From Nitrospirota bacterium (GTDB lineage: Bacteria > Nitrospinota_A > UBA7883 > JACRGQ01), in contig JAJRYM010000156.1 of NCBI GenBank assembly GCA_024275775.1, positions 1 through 14,465 of the forward strand: a DNA stretch of 14,465 nucleotides, in the 5' to 3' direction. Made by a program: the position numbers and the translations under genes. The notes under the pieces are model-generated. The model saw only the letters and a list, made by a program, of their open reading frames with translations, searched no databases and was not told where the DNA came from. Each line of letters begins with the position of its first letter. Within the stretch, counting starts at the first letter, position 1. Below, piece after piece: positions 1,454 through 9,808 of the stretch.

Positions 1454-2407
1454 ATGACAGCTGTTCAAATAACCGCACTACGCCACACCTACCCCGGCAA
1501 AAAGAAAACCGGCGCTGTAGAAGTATTGCGCGGGATAGACCTGACCGTTAAGAAAGGCAAAATTTTCGGGTTTCTTGGGCCTAACGGTTCCGGCAAAACA
1601 ACGCTTTTTAAAATACTGTCCACCCTGTTTCCTCCGTCTTCCGGCCGCGCCGAAATTCTGGGGATGGACATCGTTAAAAACCCGAATGAAATAAGACGCA
1701 GAATAGGCATCGTTTTTCAAAACCCGAGCCTGGACGGCAAACTGACCATCGAAGAAAATCTCGTTCATCAGGCGCATCTCTACGGCCTTTCGGGCGTCCC
1801 GATGCAAGAGAGAATAGATTTTCGGCTTAAACAGTTCTCACTTTCCGACAGGCGCAACCAGTTTGTGGAAACGCTTTCGGGCGGGCTTAAAAGAAGGGTG
1901 GAGCTTGCCAAAGGGCTTCTTCATAACCCGGAACTGCTTATACTGGACGAGCCTTCCACAGGCCTCGATCCTGCCGCGAGGCGGTCGTTATGGTCGGCCC
2001 TTACAGCCCTCAGGTCGAACGACGGGGTTACCATTCTCGTTACCACCCACCTTATAACCGAGGCGGAGCAGTGCGACAGGCTGGCGATTCTCGACCGAGG
2101 TCAGGTGGTTTGCGAAGGCTCTCCTGAAGAGCTTAAAAGCGAAATCGGCGGGGATGTGATAACCATTTCAACTCCCTCGCCGGCTGAATTCGCGGAGAAA
2201 TATTCTCAGAAGTTCCACGAAAAACCGATGCTCGTTAACGGAAAAATAAGAGTGGAAAAGGCCAACGGGCATCGTTTTATTCCGGAAATAGTGGAAGCGT
2301 TGCCGGCTCTCGTTCAGGGAGTGTCGTACGGCAAGCCGACGCTCGACGATGTTTTCGTTCATAAAACAGGCCATTCGCTGGCCGCCGAAGCGGAGGAAAA
2401 AGCATGA
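1454..2407 (+). CDS. ABC transporter ATP-binding protein of the ABC-2/DrrA-NatA-CcmA-like exporter class, with a C-terminal DUF4162-type extension
   Basis: Walker A GPNGSGKTT, ABC signature LSGGLKRRVELAK, Walker B LLILDEPSTGLD and an H-loop TTH are all present. An AAAGGG ribosome-binding site lies 7 nt upstream of the ATG. Confidence 0.93.
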   Translation: MTAVQITALRHTYPGKKKTGAVEVLRGIDLTVKKGKIFGFLGPNGSGKTTLFKILSTLFPPSSGRAEILGMDIVKNPNEIRRRIGIVFQNPSLDGKLTIEENLVHQAHLYGLSGVPMQERIDFRLKQFSLSDRRNQFVETLSGGLKRRVELAKGLLHNPELLILDEPSTGLDPAARRSLWSALTALRSNDGVTILVTTHLITEAEQCDRLAILDRGQVVCEGSPEELKSEIGGDVITISTPSPAEFAEKYSQKFHEKPMLVNGKIRVEKANGHRFIPEIVEALPALVQGVSYGKPTLDDVFVHKTGHSLAAEAEEKA

Positions 2408-3180
2408 GCGGAACAATGCTTACCGTAACGACTCTCTGGAAGCGCGAGATGGTACGTTTTTATCGTGACCGTAGCCGGGTTATAGGCGGGCTCGTTCCGC
2501 CGGTGATTTTCTGGTTCTTTATAGGTTCCGGTTTCAGCGGCTCTTTCCGCGTAGGCGAAGGGGAGGGGATATCCTACCTTCTTTACTTTTTCCCCGGCAT
2601 CCTTACGCTCATATTTCTTTTCACCGCAATTTTTTCGACCATCTCCATAATAGAAGACAGGAAGGAAGGTTTTCTTCAGTCGGTTCTTGTGGCGCCTGTT
2701 CCGAGAACATCGATAGTTCTTGGCAAGGTGCTTGGAAGCGCGTCGCTGGCTTTTCTGCAGGGGATACCGTTTCTTATATTGGGTTATTTCGGCGGCATTC
2801 GGATACATCACGGGATGGTTCTGCAAACCATGATAATACTTTTCGCCATCTCTTTCGTATTCGCGTCGATAGGGTTTCTTCTGGCCTGGATTCTGGAATC
2901 CGCGCAAGGTTTTCACGCGATAATGAACATGTTTCTTATCCCAATGTGGCTGTTGTCCGGGTCGCTGTTTCCGATAGGTAATCTTCCGGGCTGGCTGGCG
3001 TGGCTTGTAAAGGCCAACCCGCTAACTTACGCCGTGGCCGCTTTGCAACGGGTTCTTTTCGACCCCGGCGTCATAAGCTCCCTGCCGACGATGAGGCAGT
3101 GCGCTATCGTAATATTTGTTTATTGCGCCGTCTGTTTCGCGGGCGCTCTTTATGTCGCTAAAAAAAGGGTAAATTACTAA
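2404..3180 (+). CDS. ABC-2 family transporter permease with 6 predicted TM helices
   Basis: Its start overlaps the ATPase stop in an ATGA junction at 2404-2407. The 258-aa product is hydrophobic throughout and has the size and topology typical of ABC-2 exporter permeases. Confidence 0.88.
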   Translation: MSGTMLTVTTLWKREMVRFYRDRSRVIGGLVPPVIFWFFIGSGFSGSFRVGEGEGISYLLYFFPGILTLIFLFTAIFSTISIIEDRKEGFLQSVLVAPVPRTSIVLGKVLGSASLAFLQGIPFLILGYFGGIRIHHGMVLQTMIILFAISFVFASIGFLLAWILESAQGFHAIMNMFLIPMWLLSGSLFPIGNLPGWLAWLVKANPLTYAVAALQRVLFDPGVISSLPTMRQCAIVIFVYCAVCFAGALYVAKKRVNY

Positions 3181-3608
3181 TGAATCTCACAGTTCTGCCG
3201 CATTTTCAGGCTTCGATGAACACTGTTTCCACCATCCTTTTGCTCACAGGTTTTTATTTCATTAAAAACGACAACCGCAGCGCCCACATGAAATGCATGA
3301 TTTCGGCGCTTGGCACGTCCAGTCTGTTTCTGGTCTCCTATCTCACCTATCACTATTACGCCGGAACGACCCGCTTCGGCGGCGAGGGGTGGATAAGGCC
3401 GGTTTACTTCACGATTCTTCTTACGCACACCATCCTCGCTATAGCTATCGTGCCGCTGGTGCTGGTAACGGTCTGGCGCGCCGCTAAGGGGAGATTCGAA
3501 ACGCACAGGAAAATAGCCAGGTGGACACTGCCGATATGGCTTTATGTGTCGGTCACCGGCGTTATAATCTATTGCATGCTCTATCATCTTTATCCGCCCG
3601 CAGGCTGA
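3180..3608 (+). CDS. DUF420 family membrane protein, CtaM/YozB-like (4 TM)
   Basis: Its start overlaps the permease stop by 1 nt (TAATG). It has the DUF420-like signature segments LFLVSYLTYHYY, ILLTHTILAIAIVPLVL, HRKIARWTLPIWLYVSVTGV, and is about 140 aa long. Confidence 0.78.
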   Translation: MNLTVLPHFQASMNTVSTILLLTGFYFIKNDNRSAHMKCMISALGTSSLFLVSYLTYHYYAGTTRFGGEGWIRPVYFTILLTHTILAIAIVPLVLVTVWRAAKGRFETHRKIARWTLPIWLYVSVTGVIIYCMLYHLYPPAG

Positions 3609-3616
3609 CGGGACGC

Positions 3617-4993
3617 GTGAAAAAAAACCGGTATCATCTGGTTACGTTTGGTTGCCAGATGAACCAGTACGATTCCGAAAAACTGGAAGGGATTCTTTCT
3701 GCGCGGGGAATGGAGCCGGCCGGCAGTCCCGATAAGGCGGATGTAATCTTCGTAAACAGCTGTTCCATACGGGAAAAAGCCGAGAGCAAGGTTTTCTCGC
3801 TTATCGGGAGGCTCGCTGGCGCAGGAAACGGCAGGAAACCGGTAATAGCTTTGGGCGGCTGTATCCCGACTCTTAGGGGGAAGGAAATTTTCCGTTCGGC
3901 GCCCGCTGTAGATTTGCTCTACGGCCCCGATTCGCTGGAAAAACTGCCGGCCATGCTGGAGGAATATTTCTACACCGGCAAAAAACAGATTGATCTGGAA
4001 TTCAGCGATTCCACCGCTTGGGACGGGCCCGACCCGTGTGTAAGGCCGAGCGACGTTACAGCGTGGGTTGGAATAATGAAAGGGTGCGACAACCGATGTT
4101 CCTACTGCGTGGTGCCGGACACGCGCGGGCCGGAGGTAAGCAGGCCGGTGGAATCCATCCTTGCGGAAGTGAAAGCTCTTGCGAAAAAAGGATACAGGGA
4201 AATAAACCTGTTGGGGCAGAACGTAAATTCGTACGGCAAAACCCTTCCCGGTTCGGTTACGTTCCCGGAGCTATTGGGGATGGCGGAAGAGATTGAAGGG
4301 ATAGAGCGGATTCGGTTTATGACCTCTCATCCGAAAGATCTTACCGACAGGCTTATCGAGCGGATGGCCGGGTCTCAAAAAATCTGCCCTTCATTGCATC
4401 TTCCGCTTCAGGCCGGTTCCGACCGGATACTTGAGATGATGAACCGGGGCTACACGGCCGGCGACTACCTGGAAAAAATCCGAAAACTCAAATCGGCCGT
4501 ACCCGGAATAACCATATCAACAGACCTGATGGTGGGATTCCCGACGGAAACCGACGATGATTTCAAAAAAACTATCGGGGTGATGGAAAAAGTTAATTTT
4601 GACTCGCTTTATCTTTTCATCTATTCCCGGCGCCCGGCAACTCCCGCCGCCGATTTTGACTGCCAGGTTCCACGCGATGCCGCCCACGCCCGGTTTGAAC
4701 AAGCGTGGGCGCTCCACCGCAAAACGGTTTCCAGGAAACTCGCCGAGTTGGAAGGAAGCACGGTTGAACTGCTGTGCGAAGGGGAATATGGTGTAAAATC
4801 TACGAAAGAAAAAGACGATGCGCTAATAACGCAGTTCGGCCGGTCTGCAGGCGGCCATAAGGTTATATTTGAAGCGGAGAAGAATTTAACAGGCAAAATA
4901 TTATCGGTTCTGGTTACCCGTTCGGCCGGTTTCAATCTTTACGGAAAGCCGGCCGCGGAAAGGAATGCACATGGGAGAAGAGACAAGAATTGA
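3617..4993 (+). CDS. miaB: tRNA-2-methylthio-N6-dimethylallyladenosine synthase (radical-SAM methylthiotransferase, MiaB family)
   Basis: N-terminal MTTase motif VTFGCQMNQYDSE. Radical-SAM cysteine triad CDNRCSYCVVP. It shows strong colinearity with E. coli MiaB (VSRP..IL.E...LA..G.REINLLGQNVN, SLHLPLQAGSDRIL, C-terminal TRAM region). The true start is the GTG at 3617, 9 nt after the DUF420 stop. The ORF-track start at 3521 would overlap DUF420 and adds a non-homologous N-terminus. Confidence 0.9.
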   Translation: MKKNRYHLVTFGCQMNQYDSEKLEGILSARGMEPAGSPDKADVIFVNSCSIREKAESKVFSLIGRLAGAGNGRKPVIALGGCIPTLRGKEIFRSAPAVDLLYGPDSLEKLPAMLEEYFYTGKKQIDLEFSDSTAWDGPDPCVRPSDVTAWVGIMKGCDNRCSYCVVPDTRGPEVSRPVESILAEVKALAKKGYREINLLGQNVNSYGKTLPGSVTFPELLGMAEEIEGIERIRFMTSHPKDLTDRLIERMAGSQKICPSLHLPLQAGSDRILEMMNRGYTAGDYLEKIRKLKSAVPGITISTDLMVGFPTETDDDFKKTIGVMEKVNFDSLYLFIYSRRPATPAADFDCQVPRDAAHARFEQAWALHRKTVSRKLAELEGSTVELLCEGEYGVKSTKEKDDALITQFGRSAGGHKVIFEAEKNLTGKILSVLVTRSAGFNLYGKPAAERNAHGRRDKN

Positions 4994-5474: not shown

Positions 5475-5532
5475 TCGAACCTTGTTTTCAGTTGAGCGGT
5501 CAGGGGGAAATGTTTTTTAGGGAGGTACGGGC

Positions 5533-6645
5533 ATGGCGATAATGATGGAGGTAATCGAATGGACGGATCCATCTCCGGAAGACATGATTTCCCGCTATCC
5601 CGGAAGGGGTTCGGCCGATATAAAGCTCGGCGCACAGCTTATCGTACGGGAAACGCAGTCGGCCGTATTTTACCGCGATGGCAAGGCCTGCGATTCGTTC
5701 GGGCCGGGCAGACATACTCTTAAAACCGTAAACCTGCCGATAATCACTAAACTGTTCTCCGCACCGTGGGGCTTTGAAAGCATATTCAAGGCCACGGTCT
5801 ATTTTATAAATCACAAAACCTTCACGAACATGAAGTGGGGCACCAGAGATCCCGTGGCGTTCCGCGACCGTGAGCTGGGCCTTGTCCGATTGCGGGGCTT
5901 CGGCGTTTACAGCATGAAAGTAACCGAGCCTCTTCTCTTCATAAACCAGCTCGTCGGAAGGGAAGCCCAATACTCTACAGACCAGATAGGCGACTATTTA
6001 AGGGACATAATAATATGCAGGCTTAACGACCTTTTCGGCGAAAAGCTGGATACAATTCTCGATCTGCCGGCGCAATACAAGGAGCTCGCGGCCGAACTCA
6101 AGGATATTCTGCAGAAAGAGTTTGGCAAATACGGCATAACCCTGCTCGATTTCTACATATCTTCCATCACGCCGCCCGAAGAGGTGCAGAAGATGATAGA
6201 CGAAAGAAGCGGAATGGCGGCCGTAGAGAATCTGGATCAGTTTCTCAAGTTCAAGGTGGCGAAATCGATGGATGCCGGCGGAGGCGCCGTATCCGGCGGA
6301 GCCGCGGCCGGAATAGGCATGGGAGTAGGGATGATGATGCCGGGCTACATGAGCAAAGCGTTTGCCCCGGAGCAGAGGGACTTGGAAAAGGAGTCGATAC
6401 CTACGGTGCAATGCCCCGAATGTCTGGCACATACGCCGGAAAACAGCAGGTTTTGCTACCGGTGCGGGCACCAGATGACTGCGGCCAGCATGTGCCAGAA
6501 CTGTTCCAAGGTGGTGCCGGTGCATTCCAAATTCTGCATGAACTGCGGTCATAGCCTTTCGGAAAAGCCGCACTGTTCAAAATGCGATATCGATCTTCCG
6601 TCCGGCACAAAATTCTGCCCCGGTTGCGGGGAGAAAATAGGCTGA
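5533..6645 (+). CDS. SPFH/band-7 domain protein of the COG4260 'YdjI / putative virion core protein' type with three tandem C-terminal zinc ribbons
   Basis: The N-terminus (IEWTDPSPEDMISRYPGRG...GAQLIVRETQSAVFYRDGKACDSFGPGRHTL.T.NLP...KWGTRDP) matches the COG4260 SPFH family as I recall it. A Gly/Met-rich low-complexity linker lies at nt 6268-6351. Three CxxC-x9-11-CxxC units follow at nt ~6412-6642. A GGGAGG ribosome-binding site sits 7 nt upstream of the start. Confidence 0.88.
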   Translation: MAIMMEVIEWTDPSPEDMISRYPGRGSADIKLGAQLIVRETQSAVFYRDGKACDSFGPGRHTLKTVNLPIITKLFSAPWGFESIFKATVYFINHKTFTNMKWGTRDPVAFRDRELGLVRLRGFGVYSMKVTEPLLFINQLVGREAQYSTDQIGDYLRDIIICRLNDLFGEKLDTILDLPAQYKELAAELKDILQKEFGKYGITLLDFYISSITPPEEVQKMIDERSGMAAVENLDQFLKFKVAKSMDAGGGAVSGGAAAGIGMGVGMMMPGYMSKAFAPEQRDLEKESIPTVQCPECLAHTPENSRFCYRCGHQMTAASMCQNCSKVVPVHSKFCMNCGHSLSEKPHCSKCDIDLPSGTKFCPGCGEKIG

Positions 6646-6668
6646 AGCCTTTTTGAAAGAGGGGCGGT

Positions 6669-8069
6669 ATGCGAAACCCTCTGCTTGTATCAACCAAATG
6701 CCGCGAATGCGGCGCCCCGATAAGATACCCCGAAGGAGCCTACACGTTCAGATGCGGTTTCTGCTCGTCGGCGCTTAGAACCTCAACGGAGGGACGGGAA
6801 CTTAAATACATCATTCCCGTTAGGCTTTCCCGAAAAGACGTTCTTTTGAGCGTCAAGCGGTTAATAACAACGAACAGGAACGAATACGGCGGTTTGAAAA
6901 AAGTCAGGCATATCAGAAATATCTATAAACCGTTCTGGTACTTCAAAGGGATGGTCTACAGTGCTTGGGCGGAGGCGGGTAAAAACAAAGCCGAGCTACT
7001 GTCAAAACTGTGGTTTCATACTTTTCAGGCGAACACCGAACATATTCCATGGCTTTTTTCGCTCGGGATCAGCTCGGAAGTTCTTACGCTCGAACCTTAC
7101 GACAGCGACCGCTTCCGTGAAGAAGGAACAGTTCTGCCCGTAACTCTTAACAGGGAAGAAGCTGAAGAACAGGCGTTGCTAATAGCGGGAAGGAGCGCGA
7201 GGATAGCGGCTCCCAACGCCCCTTACTTCAGGAATTTCCTAATAGGCGAGCGGTTCTTCCTTCTATATTATCCGCTGGTGCAGGTTGTCTGTTCGGGAGA
7301 GGCCGGTTTGCAAACTCTCTATTTCGACGGCGTAACGGCTAAGTGTGTCGGTGGGGAGGAGGGGGGGAATGCTCTTACGGCGGGTCAAGAGGAAAATTAC
7401 CATATAAAATTTCTGGTGCACAGATGTAAAAACTGCGGGCATGATCTTCAGTCGGCCGATTTCGACCTGTTCTATTATTGCCGTCACTGTTTTCGCCTCT
7501 GGGAGCTGAAAGGGGACGACTATATTTCCCGCAAAGTCCGGATTATCGAACCGTCCGGCAAAGGGAAAACTTTTTACATCCCTTTCTGGCGGTTTGCTGT
7601 GGAAATCGACTCGCCCGGAACCGGAAACCATTTTGCAACGGTGGGGGATTTGAGCAGGTTCATGAAGATGGGCCGCCATCTTTTAAGAAACGAGAATCCC
7701 GATAGGCCGTTAAAGTTTTACATCCCTGCTGTCGTGGCGCGAAACGCCAGGGCTGTGATGAAACTGGCCACCCGGTTGAGCATGTTTCAGAAAGATGTTC
7801 CTCTTTCCGGTTTTTCCGAGTTCCCCTATGAAAATATCCTCAACGTGTCACTGCCTGAACAGGAGGCGGTGGAGATGCTCGAACCGCTTGTCTTCTCAGT
7901 CATAGGAAGGGCCGACCCGCAGGCGGTTTCTTTCTATAAGGATTTTCAAATTAAAACGATTGCAAGAGAGCTGATCTGGTATCCGTTTGAGGATAAGGGA
8001 GCTATGCTTGCGGATCATTATCACGATTATTATTTTCCAAGGAAATCACTCGATATCAGAGCTTTCTAG
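6669..8069 (+). CDS. Zinc-ribbon protein built from an internal tandem duplication (two units of [CxxC..CxxC ribbon + ~200-aa domain with a PFW(Y/R)F motif]). Its function is unknown. It is the likely partner of the upstream SPFH protein.
   Basis: It starts 23 nt after the SPFH gene, with GAGGGG as ribosome-binding site. Ribbon 1 is CRECGAP..x14..CGFC (nt ~6699-6770). Ribbon 2 is CKNCGH..x14..CRHC (nt 7425-7490). The halves carry matching motifs: YKPFWYF vs YIPFWRF, LNREEAEEQALLIAGR vs LPEQEAVEMLEPLVFSVIGR, and FLLYYPL vs LIWYPF. Confidence 0.8.
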   Translation: MRNPLLVSTKCRECGAPIRYPEGAYTFRCGFCSSALRTSTEGRELKYIIPVRLSRKDVLLSVKRLITTNRNEYGGLKKVRHIRNIYKPFWYFKGMVYSAWAEAGKNKAELLSKLWFHTFQANTEHIPWLFSLGISSEVLTLEPYDSDRFREEGTVLPVTLNREEAEEQALLIAGRSARIAAPNAPYFRNFLIGERFFLLYYPLVQVVCSGEAGLQTLYFDGVTAKCVGGEEGGNALTAGQEENYHIKFLVHRCKNCGHDLQSADFDLFYYCRHCFRLWELKGDDYISRKVRIIEPSGKGKTFYIPFWRFAVEIDSPGTGNHFATVGDLSRFMKMGRHLLRNENPDRPLKFYIPAVVARNARAVMKLATRLSMFQKDVPLSGFSEFPYENILNVSLPEQEAVEMLEPLVFSVIGRADPQAVSFYKDFQIKTIARELIWYPFEDKGAMLADHYHDYYFPRKSLDIRAF

Positions 8070-8438
8070 AGCTTTGCCGTTTTCAGTAGAGTCCGGGCAG
8101 TCGCAGCCTAAAAGCTCTTTGGCTTTAGCGCGAGCTTTTTCTTTTTCTACCGGCGTGATGTATTTTAAGGCTATCGAAATGGCGTACGCCAGCACGCCGA
8201 GGTCGTCGGAGTAGCCTACGGCCGGGATGAAATCCGATATCGCGTCCATGGGCACTATGAAATAAATCAACGCTCCGTATATCGTGGTTCTAACCCACGC
8301 GGGGAGGTCGGGTTTTTCCAGCGTGTAAAAGAGGATGAGCGCTTTGCAAATTACTTTACAGCCGATATCTTTCGCGTACTTTTTAAGCTTTTGCCAGAAA
8401 CGCTTTTCCGAGAATTTTTCTTCTTCCAGCGTATTCAT
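8046..8438 (-). CDS. DUF1232 (YkvA-like) small membrane protein
   Basis: Family signature LILFYTLEKPDLPAWVRTTIYGALIYFIVPMDAISDFIPAVGYSDDLGVL, which matches YkvA ...[30 protein letters not shown].... It begins 3 nt after the NUDIX stop on the minus strand. Its last 24 nt overlap the convergent plus-strand gene. Confidence 0.75.
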   Translation of the reverse strand: MNTLEEEKFSEKRFWQKLKKYAKDIGCKVICKALILFYTLEKPDLPAWVRTTIYGALIYFIVPMDAISDFIPAVGYSDDLGVLAYAISIALKYITPVEKEKARAKAKELLGCDCPDSTENGKALESSDIE

Positions 8439-8441
8439 CGG

Positions 8442-8888
8442 CTACTGTTTACGGGAAAAGTAATCTTCAAGAATCCAGGCGTGGTCGAATCCCAGAACAT
8501 CCGGCAGATTTTCGCGCGTAAAGACCCCTATATCGTCGGCATCGTCGTCGGCTTTCGGAGTCCCGTCGGCTGTGGCGGTGAAAACCGTAGAGATTGTATG
8601 CAGGCGCGGGTCGCGCTTCGGGTTGGAATATACGTGAAACTGTTTCAGGTCGCGCAGATCCAGCGAGGTTTCCTCTTTAGCTTCGCGCGCGGCGGCGGTT
8701 TCCACCGATTCGCCGTAGTCCACAAAACCGCCGGGAATAGCCCATACTTTCGGTTCGTTCTTCCGATGGATAAGGATGATTCCGCCGCCTTCCATCTCGA
8801 TGATGATATCCACCGTAGGTTTCGGATTTTGGTAAACCTCTACCGTCTCCCCGCATGCGGGACATTTCACGGAACGCTTTACAGCCAT
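8442..8888 (-). CDS. NUDIX hydrolase with an N-terminal CxxC motif
   Basis: Canonical Nudix box [24 protein letters not shown] (Gx5Ex7REUxEExGU). The protein is 148 aa. CPACGE lies near the N-terminus. Confidence 0.88.
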
Positions 8889-8932
8889 GCCGTTAAGTTT
8901 ACACTTTCCGGCGCGATTTTCGAGGAATCGCC

Positions 8933-9808
8933 TTACTGAATGAGCCCGTACCGCCGGAGAATTTCCTCGAGTTTTGTCCTGTTGCCTTCCGCCATCGGCG
9001 AGAGCGGCAGGCGGAACTCTTCGTTTATCTTCCCCATAAGCGCCGCGGCGGTCTTTACCGGAATCGGGTTAGTTTCCAGAAACATCGCGTGGTGGAGCTC
9101 GCGCATTTCCATGTGCAGTTTAAGCGCCTCATCATGTTTGCCTGCGAAAAACAGGTTGTGCATCTCCGCCATTTTGCCGGGCAGAATGTTCGCCGTTACG
9201 GATATCGACCCACTGGACCCCACGGCAAGGAGAGGGTAATTGATAAAATCGTCTCCCGAAAGCAGAATAAAATCATCAGGGCAGAGGGCAAGCACGTCTA
9301 TCGCTTGGCCGACGGAGCCGGAAGCTTCCTTTATGCCGACTATGTTCGGATGCCCGGCAAGCCGTGCGACAGTTGCCGGCAGAACGTTCAGCGCTGTTCT
9401 GCCCGGAACGTTGTAGAGAATCTGCTGGATATCGGCGGAATCGGCTATCGTCATGTAATGGCGATACACTCCCTCCTGCGTCGGCTTGTTGTAATAGGGA
9501 GAAATCAAAAGCGCGCCGTCCGCTCCGAGGTCTTTTGCCGCGCGGGTAAGCGCTATGGCCTCGCTGGTGGAATTGCTTCCCGTCCCGGCTATGATTTTTA
9601 CCCGTCCGTTAGCGGTTTTTACCGAAATGTCAATCAGTTCCAGGTGTTCTTCGTGGTTCAGGGTGGCCGATTCCCCCGTTGAGCCGCACGGCACTATTCC
9701 CTGGGTTCCGTTTTCTATAAGCCACTCCAGATGGGCGGTGAACCGGCCTGCGTCGATTTTGCCGTTATCGAACGGCGTAACCGAGGCTACGATGGAACCT
9801 TTAAACAT
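8933..9808 (-). CDS. dapA: 4-hydroxy-tetrahydrodipicolinate synthase
   Basis: It shows full-length DapA colinearity: [26 protein letters not shown], the active-site Lys context GIKEASG, and [13 protein letters not shown] ribosome-binding site lies 9 nt upstream on the minus strand. Confidence 0.95.

Follow-up and report, generated by a model that had tools for sequence, protein, structure and literature searches.

The closest described relatives of the gene pair discussed here lie in the Bacillus subtilis operon pspA-ydjGHI, also named pspA-samGHI, which is one of the few bacterial modules linking an SPFH scaffold to the ESCRT-III-like protein PspA. YdjG has a transmembrane segment in addition to its two zinc ribbons and YpeB-related NTF2-like domain, and YdjH is a TPM-domain protein (PMC11237479); YdjI, the SPFH protein, depends on YdjG and YdjH, both membrane proteins, for its membrane localization, and PspA foci in turn require YdjI (PMC8581546). 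Genetics in B. subtilis indicate that SamI brings PspA to the membrane and holds the SamGH complex in check (PMC8581546; bioRxiv 10.64898/2026.02.06.704340), and a developmental phenotype of SamI was found to be independent of PspA (bioRxiv 10.64898/2026.02.06.704340). Here we describe two adjacent genes on a contig of a Nitrospirota bacterium (JAJRYM010000156.1; the whole stretch analysed, of 14,465 nucleotides, is referred to as the window), whose products, P1 and P2, are homologs of YdjI and YdjG, respectively. An earlier interpretation made from the letters of the DNA (the sequence-only reading) had placed a two-gene module here, had likened it to a Psp-type system without pspA and had suggested that it may scaffold the membrane or sense nucleic acid or metal ions; both open reading frames and their 23-nucleotide spacing were recovered at exactly the coordinates it gave, and the resemblance is closer than it had supposed, because P2 is itself a YdjG homolog. 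We favour, with modest conviction, the explanation that the two proteins constitute an autonomous SamI/SamG-like unit, with neither PspA nor the TPM protein YdjH in the operon. The two genes, with the evidence for each in brackets, are as follows.

5533..6645, + strand: P1, a YdjI/SamI-like SPFH protein of 370 amino acids with no predicted transmembrane helix (open reading frame; Pfam; BLASTP against YdjI)
6669..8069, + strand: P2, a tandem-duplicated YdjG/SamG-like protein of 466 amino acids without a C-terminal transmembrane helix (open reading frame; homolog searches)

P1, generically annotated as an ‘SPFH domain-containing protein’, had been read as a COG4260/YdjI-like SPFH protein followed by three consecutive CxxC..CxxC ribbons, and both parts of this assignment were borne out. 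The protein matches the Pfam family Band_7_1 (PF13421) over amino acids 21–229 with E=3.9e-66 and 223 bits (cut-off, 24 bits), and also matches Band_7 (PF01145, E=3.8e-12) and DZR (E=6.7e-17). The ribbons, at amino acids 294–311, 321–338 and 348–365, can be read directly as three CxxC-x10-CxxC motifs, and their cysteines are invariant in an alignment of 44 sequences. The elements of P1 are listed below.

5593..6219, + strand: SPFH (Band_7_1) domain, amino acids 21–229 (Pfam envelope; AlphaFold2 (AF2) model and Foldseek)
6277..6351, + strand: Gly/Met-rich hydrophobic segment, amino acids 249–273, GGGAVSGGAAAGIGMGVGMMMPGYM (conservation across 65 homologs)
6412..6465, + strand: zinc ribbon 1, C294, C297, C308 and C311 (Pfam DZR/Zn_Ribbon_1)
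6493..6546, + strand: zinc ribbon 2, C321, C324, C335 and C338 (Pfam DZR/Zn_Ribbon_1)
6574..6627, + strand: zinc ribbon 3, C348, C351, C362 and C365 (Pfam DZR/Zn_Ribbon_1)

The AF2 model of P1 has a predicted local distance difference test score (pLDDT) of 68 overall and of 70–88 in the SPFH core, and Foldseek superposed it on HflK/C (9cz2) with E=2.7e-9 and a probability of 1.00; stomatin, prohibitin, flotillin and QmcA followed in the list, each with a probability of 1.00, and the structural matches also included a soluble particle, the vault, through its SPFH-like shoulder domain. Family match and structural comparison thus agree in placing P1 within the SPFH fold. Oligomerization on membranes, as rings or cages, is common to HflK/C, stomatin, prohibitin, flotillin and QmcA.

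In order to compare the pair with the Bacillus proteins, the sequences of the B. subtilis operon were recovered from metagenome contigs, by searching with the published primer for cloning ydjG, in which the third codon positions had been made degenerate. BLASTP aligned P1 with YdjI over 323 amino acids at 25% identity (E=4e-27); the two share the same Pfam architecture and are collinear through the SPFH domain, the Gly/Met-rich low-complexity region and the first ribbon. Like the other Band_7_1 or YdjI(SamI)-type proteins (COG4260), P1 combines the SPFH fold with the lack of an intrinsic transmembrane anchor, a hydropathy scan showing no N-terminal hydrophobic segment, and its low-complexity region precedes C-terminal CxxC..CxxC ribbons; both P1 and YdjI/SamI are, moreover, encoded beside a YdjG-type protein. 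The differences lie in the number of ribbons (three in P1, one in YdjI), in the position of the gene (first of a two-gene unit, rather than last of a four-gene operon) and in the Gly/Met segment, which is hydrophobic and conserved in P1 but polar and N/Q-rich in YdjI. The sequence-only reading had regarded this segment as a flexible Gly/Met-rich linker. Its composition is indeed rich in Gly and Met, but it is not a freely variable linker: both pattern and length are kept across phyla, with the consensus aGaGmGmaaGVGlMmPgmm.K.F.PeQ.eL in 65 homologs, in 51 of which it is the most hydrophobic 19-mer of the protein. The stretch is glycine-zipper-like and of fixed length, and may be a membrane-contact or oligomerization element. 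Its interpretation as a transmembrane helix remains speculation and was set aside, because its hydropathy is below threshold in most homologs and it is disordered in the AF2 model.

P2 had been described from its sequence as a duplicated zinc-ribbon protein with no enzymatic motifs, and profile comparison bears out the duplication. When the profiles of its two halves were aligned (hhalign), they matched with 91% probability (E=1e-6, 188 columns), pairing ribbon with ribbon, PFW motif with PFW motif and the YYP strand with the WYPF strand, and P2 is therefore a tandem duplication of a module of ~220 amino acids consisting of a ribbon and a domain.

6669..7373, + strand: N-terminal module of P2, amino acids 1–235, with a zinc ribbon (C11–C32), a PFW motif (amino acids 88–90), an LEPYD motif and a YYP strand (hhalign against YdjG)
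7404..8066, + strand: C-terminal module of P2, amino acids 246–466, with a zinc ribbon (C253–C274), a PFW motif (amino acids 305–307) and a WYPF strand (hhalign against the N-terminal module and YdjG)

The AF2 model of the whole protein has a pLDDT of 86.6 and a predicted template modelling score of 0.85. All eight ribbon cysteines (C11, C14, C29 and C32; C253, C256, C271 and C274) are invariant in an alignment of 43 homologs, as are both PFW motifs and a few aromatic and proline positions. The claim that P2 lacks enzymatic motifs also held: the same 43-homolog alignment contains no catalytic-looking set of invariant residues, and searches of Pfam, NCBIfam, PADLOC and PHROGs returned no family, enzymatic or other, above ribbon-level noise. 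The P2 profile retrieved from the PDB sequences only generic ribosomal or RNA-binding zinc ribbons, all with E>0.1.

Profile methods nevertheless connect P2 to YdjG. The P2 family profile aligned with YdjG at 95.3% probability (hhalign, E=2.3e-8), placing amino acids 9–231 of P2 on amino acids 54–309 of YdjG, that is, on the second ribbon and the core, the match stopping just short of the transmembrane helix; against the YdjG family profile the probability was 96.3% (profile–profile comparison, E=1.7e-9, 216 columns). Each half of P2 also matched YdjG separately, the N-terminal half at 96.0% (hhalign, E=4.1e-9, 228 columns, YdjG 52–318) and the C-terminal half at 93.2% (hhalign, E=3e-7, 70 columns), and YdjG used alone as a phmmer query recovered 57 P2 homologs among the open reading frames of the loci described below. 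The two proteins share the motif order ribbon, IP..S..EA, Y(K/I)PFW, LEPY(D/S), Y(Y/L)LPV, (D/N)G.(T/N).K..G. The core of P2 resembles YpeB/YpmB PepSY-type folds, and in P2, as in YdjG/SamG, a zinc ribbon is followed by the same alpha+beta core, the YpeB-like core published for YdjG (PMC11237479). P2 therefore has the N-terminal ribbons and the YpeB-related (NTF2/PepSY-like) core of the YdjG/SamG family, but departs from it in having neither the C-terminal transmembrane segment nor the single core module in ~340 amino acids: whereas YdjG carries one core behind two ribbons in 341 amino acids and ends in a transmembrane helix, P2 carries two modules of ribbon plus core in 466 and ends without one, and the identity between the two proteins is only ~20%. 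The C-terminus of P2 is polar, with no hydrophobic tail, and its most hydrophobic window (amino acids 190–208) contains both a glutamate and an arginine and is modelled by AF2 as a confident beta-hairpin. P2 thus corresponds to the cytoplasmic part of YdjG in two fused copies, minus the membrane anchor.

The family to which P2 belongs is sizeable and is covered by no curated database. In a collection of 5.8 billion proteins, we found its homologs in 49 clusters, nearly all of 465–515 amino acids, matched over the full length at 38–90% identity, together with one relative only 23% identical. An exhaustive hidden Markov model search of 1.84 billion cluster representatives gave 188 clusters with E<=1e-30 (the clusters being defined at 50% identity) and 790 with E<=1e-10, and the best 150 were mostly of 450–520 amino acids and matched over the full length. 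Some distant two-module P2-type proteins from this search (P0062, P0100 and P0104, also P0113 and P0184) are longer, at 560–618 amino acids, with an N-terminal extension of ~100 amino acids that contains one additional zinc ribbon besides a GYF_2 domain (PF14237).

We then examined how consistently the two genes occur together, scanning one genome per GTDB species. This gave 125 loci with a P2 relative, from uncultivated bacteria, and 80 of them were examined. The loci are from Zixibacteria (30), Ignavibacteria (25), Nitrospinota, Nitrospirota, Thermodesulfobacteriota, Calditrichota, GN15 and unclassified metagenome-assembled genomes. A full-length P1 homolog was present in all 76 loci that had DNA upstream of P2 (tblastn), and in 75 of the 76 it lay directly upstream on the same strand, mostly with gaps of −60 to +30 nucleotides, so that the pair is strictly co-conserved across genomes. 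P1 is by far the better conserved of the two, with 55–79% identity compared with 20–46% for P2. The ribbon numbers were constant, exactly three in 65/65 full-length P1 partners and exactly two in 69/69 full-length P2 homologs. The same association was seen from the P1 side, where homologs on contigs of 1.4 Mb and 230 kb were each followed by a gene of 465 or 490 amino acids without a Pfam domain, and the most divergent P2 homolog starts 2 nucleotides after a Band_7_1+DZR gene. Clustering of the 721 open reading frames from the window and the 80 loci revealed no conserved third gene beside the pair, the next-commonest cluster occurring in only 18 loci. The downstream neighbours, 62 in number, are heterogeneous by Pfam (FlgD_ig in 11, ODP/flavodoxin in six), and the MiaB-like, BFN, DUF1232, NUDIX and DapA neighbours found in the window are kept with the pair only among close relatives.

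Two loci depart from this pattern. In a Nitrospinota metagenome-assembled genome (L008, JACRGO010000075, 1753–5822), the only split pair, two same-strand open reading frames are inserted between the P1 and P2 genes, encoding a 195-amino acid protein without a Pfam match and a 1109-amino acid CHAT protease/STAND (AAA_16/NACHT) NTPase of the conflict-system type. In the other (L015:6043-7115), P2 is frameshifted into two overlapping open reading frames, the first CxxC of ribbon 1 is lost and an internal deletion removes ribbon 2; standing beside an intact SPFH gene, this degenerate copy, the only one in ~76 loci, may have arisen by pseudogene formation or by faulty assembly of the sequence. A separate observation, confined to a single locus (L014:7580-11881), is a gene 32 nucleotides 3′ of P2 on the same strand, encoding a 1433-amino acid superfamily 1 (SF1)-helicase-like protein (AAA_11/AAA_12/AAA_30, weak nSTAND3).

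In the canonical Firmicute order, PspA-YdjG-YdjH-YdjI, the genes are tightly operonic. The operon contains homologs of both P1 and P2, and a sub-membrane SPFH scaffold with zinc-ribbon partners is the likely theme of both arrangements, but the PspA_IM30 protein and the TPM membrane protein of the canonical operon have no counterpart at the P1–P2 locus, where the order is I-like then G-like. With the B. subtilis PspA and YdjH sequences as phmmer queries, no match was found among the 721 open reading frames, and precomputed annotations contained no Pfam match to PF04012 (PspA_IM30) or PF04536 (TPM) within 10 kb of the pair; taken together, these negative results cover 6–10 kb around the pair in ~85 loci, and agree with the absence of pspA that had been noted at this locus. 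A YdjG homolog of Clostridia served as a positive control: around it, these annotations gave PspA_IM30 - Zn_Ribbon_TF - TPM - Band_7_1. The hosts also differ, being Zixibacteria, Ignavibacteria, Nitrospinota, Nitrospirota, Thermodesulfobacteriota and Calditrichota rather than Firmicutes, and membership of the sigma-W regulon and induction by envelope stress are Bacillus features of the Psp-type operon.

PspA/IM30 is very widespread in bacteria, and the pair could be the local half of a dispersed Psp-type system, with PspA/IM30, and perhaps a TPM protein or anchor, encoded elsewhere, P1 recruiting PspA to sites of membrane damage in the manner of YdjI and P2 acting as an adaptor. The collinearity of P1 with YdjI is in keeping with this, and Ravi et al. 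(PMC11237479) point out that abbreviated band-7 operons may cooperate with PspA homologs whose genes lie elsewhere. We consider such a system possible but doubtful, given that genes so tightly operonic in Firmicutes are missing from the surroundings of the pair in every locus covered, that the gene order differs and the transmembrane helix has been lost from P2, and that the developmental phenotype of SamI in B. subtilis does not depend on PspA (bioRxiv 10.64898/2026.02.06.704340).

If, as we favour, the pair is an autonomous SamI/SamG-like unit, P1 would be a soluble SPFH protein that, judging from its fold, oligomerizes into a ring-shaped or cage-like assembly on the cytoplasmic side of the membrane, and P2 would be a built-in pseudo-dimer of two units, each a zinc ribbon plus a YpeB/PepSY-like alpha+beta domain, with no membrane helix. 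P2 may bind P1 and govern the place or the timing of SPFH assembly, or may couple the assembly to a client protein, in parallel with the mutual control between SamG/SamH and SamI in B. subtilis, and the unit might have a role in envelope stress. Since P2 is unanchored, any contact with the membrane would need to be made by P1, whose candidate elements are the Gly/Met segment, which is hydrophobic and conserved, and an SPFH loop that is also hydrophobic, or else by an unlinked partner. The pairing of an SPFH protein with a dedicated partner in one operon has precedents in HflK/HflC-FtsH and in the SPFH-NfeD pairs (QmcA-YbbJ), and the P1 model superposes on both HflK/C and QmcA. However, HflK/HflC and QmcA-type SPFH proteins have N-terminal transmembrane anchors, which P1 lacks, and their partners are NfeD or FtsH proteins, whereas P2 gave no Pfam match above threshold to an NfeD or protease domain.

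Several observations weigh against this explanation. No transmembrane helix is predicted in either P1 or P2, and in the AF2 monomer the Gly/Met segment is disordered (pLDDT 28–43), which makes membrane association no more than a hypothesis. The Kyte–Doolittle hydropathy window is also a weak discriminator here, as the real transmembrane segment of YdjG scores only 1.56 and the maximum of P2 is 1.43. The homology between P2 and YdjG stands at HHalign probabilities of 93–96%, not >99%. Finally, the two-hybrid contacts reported in B. subtilis were YdjG-YdjH, YdjH-YdjI, YdjH-PspA and YdjI-PspA, but not YdjG-YdjI (PMC8581546), and a direct contact between P1 and P2 is therefore not simply transferable from Bacillus.

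The lack of any predicted transmembrane helix would also suit a soluble, non-membrane SPFH cage or scaffold that uses the five zinc ribbons for cohesion or loading and binds cytoplasmic nucleic acid or client proteins. The vault-particle shoulder among the structural matches of P1, the name ‘TFIIB-type zinc ribbon-containing protein’ that NCBI gives to YdjG relatives and the N-terminal GYF_2 peptide-binding domain of some distant P2-type proteins can all be read in this way. We nevertheless regard it as improbable, because SPFH complexes attached to membranes account for all the best structural matches of P1 (HflK/C, stomatin, prohibitin, flotillin and QmcA), the nearest characterized homologs work at the membrane (PMC8581546), the Gly/Met segment of P1 is conserved as a hydrophobic one and Pfam detected no nucleic acid-binding domain beyond the generic ribbons.

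An origin of P2 in phages or other mobile elements was rejected, since tblastn of P2 against 50,697 phage and 72,556 plasmid records gave no match. Defence genes typically diversify quickly, and an anti-phage or conflict system with the SPFH protein as membrane-directed effector or sensor, suggested by the CHAT-protease/STAND-NTPase gene inserted within the pair in L008, the SF1-helicase-like gene after P2 in L014 and the naming of the Psp system for its response to phage, is very improbable in view of the 55–79% identity of P1 across phyla, far above the conservation usual for such genes, the lack of any PADLOC match for P1 (P2 giving only ribbon-level noise, E=0.012-0.03), of any PHROGs match or phage or plasmid record for P2, and flanking genes that are housekeeping and heterogeneous rather than defence islands.

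Both proteins belong to known kinds. In the literature searched, we found no identification of P2 as a YdjG homolog, no mention of its tandem duplication and loss of the transmembrane helix, no strict two-gene unit lacking PspA and TPM, and no account of the distribution of the pair in FCB-group, Nitrospinota/Nitrospirota and Thermodesulfobacteriota lineages. P2 defines an uncurated protein family, whose members are at present annotated as ‘hypothetical’ or under misleading ribbon-based names. Because, in at least 125 species far removed from the Firmicutes, a SamI-like and SamG-like pair persists as a strict unit of two genes without a nearby PspA or TPM gene, and with a P2 that has no membrane helix, our results point to the relationship between G and I as the conserved core of the module, which fits the SamI phenotypes that do not need PspA (bioRxiv 10.64898/2026.02.06.704340), and the pair offers a simpler, two-component system in which to study the action of a YdjG-type protein on an SPFH oligomer. 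More speculatively, and rather against the odds as we see them, the pair might be an ancient, self-sufficient Sam/Psp-linked SPFH core, independent of PspA, in which the soluble duplicated adaptor and the three-ribbon SPFH protein would join through their zinc ribbons as a novel kind of SPFH complex. This complex would either sit on the membrane by way of the glycine/methionine zipper of P1 or be fully soluble, and the Firmicute operon would later have added the anchor, TPM and ESCRT-III components to the core.

The 23-nucleotide spacer between the two genes (6646–6668), which lie on the same strand, contains no terminator-like site or hairpin in a sequence scan, and each gene is preceded by a Shine–Dalgarno-like sequence, identified by reading of the sequence.

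5519..5525, + strand: AGGGAGG, 7 nucleotides ahead of the P1 start codon
6658..6664, + strand: AGAGGGG, in the spacer, 4 nucleotides ahead of the P2 start codon

Scans for sigma-70 consensus sequences, promoters and terminators in and around the pair gave nothing above chance, and the same was true of Rfam and tRNA searches. By Pfam, the pair follows a MiaB-like radical-SAM gene and a BFN-domain (bifunctional nuclease) gene and is convergent with DUF1232 and NUDIX genes on the opposite strand, in agreement with the sequence-only reading, which had set it between housekeeping genes and opposite a NUDIX/DUF1232 operon. Near the SPFH and P2 genes, both in the window (1454–3180 and 8442–9808) and in a more distant relative (L085, GCA_040960095.1; 1229–2596 and 8347–9928), are an ABC transporter pair (ABC_tran + ABC2_membrane) and a DHDPS + NUDIX pair; neither is kept in other phyla, and their proximity is more suggestive of residual synteny than of a functional link. 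The longest open reading frame of the MiaB-like gene (window 3521–4993) has 490 amino acids, starts with GTG and overlaps the preceding DUF420-like gene, but its counterpart in the syntenic relative L087 is annotated with 444 amino acids, so that the true start probably lies further downstream. The DUF1232 gene (8046–8438, − strand) overlaps the 3′ end of P2 tail to tail by 24 nucleotides (8046–8069), and L087, which is 90% identical, shows the same arrangement.

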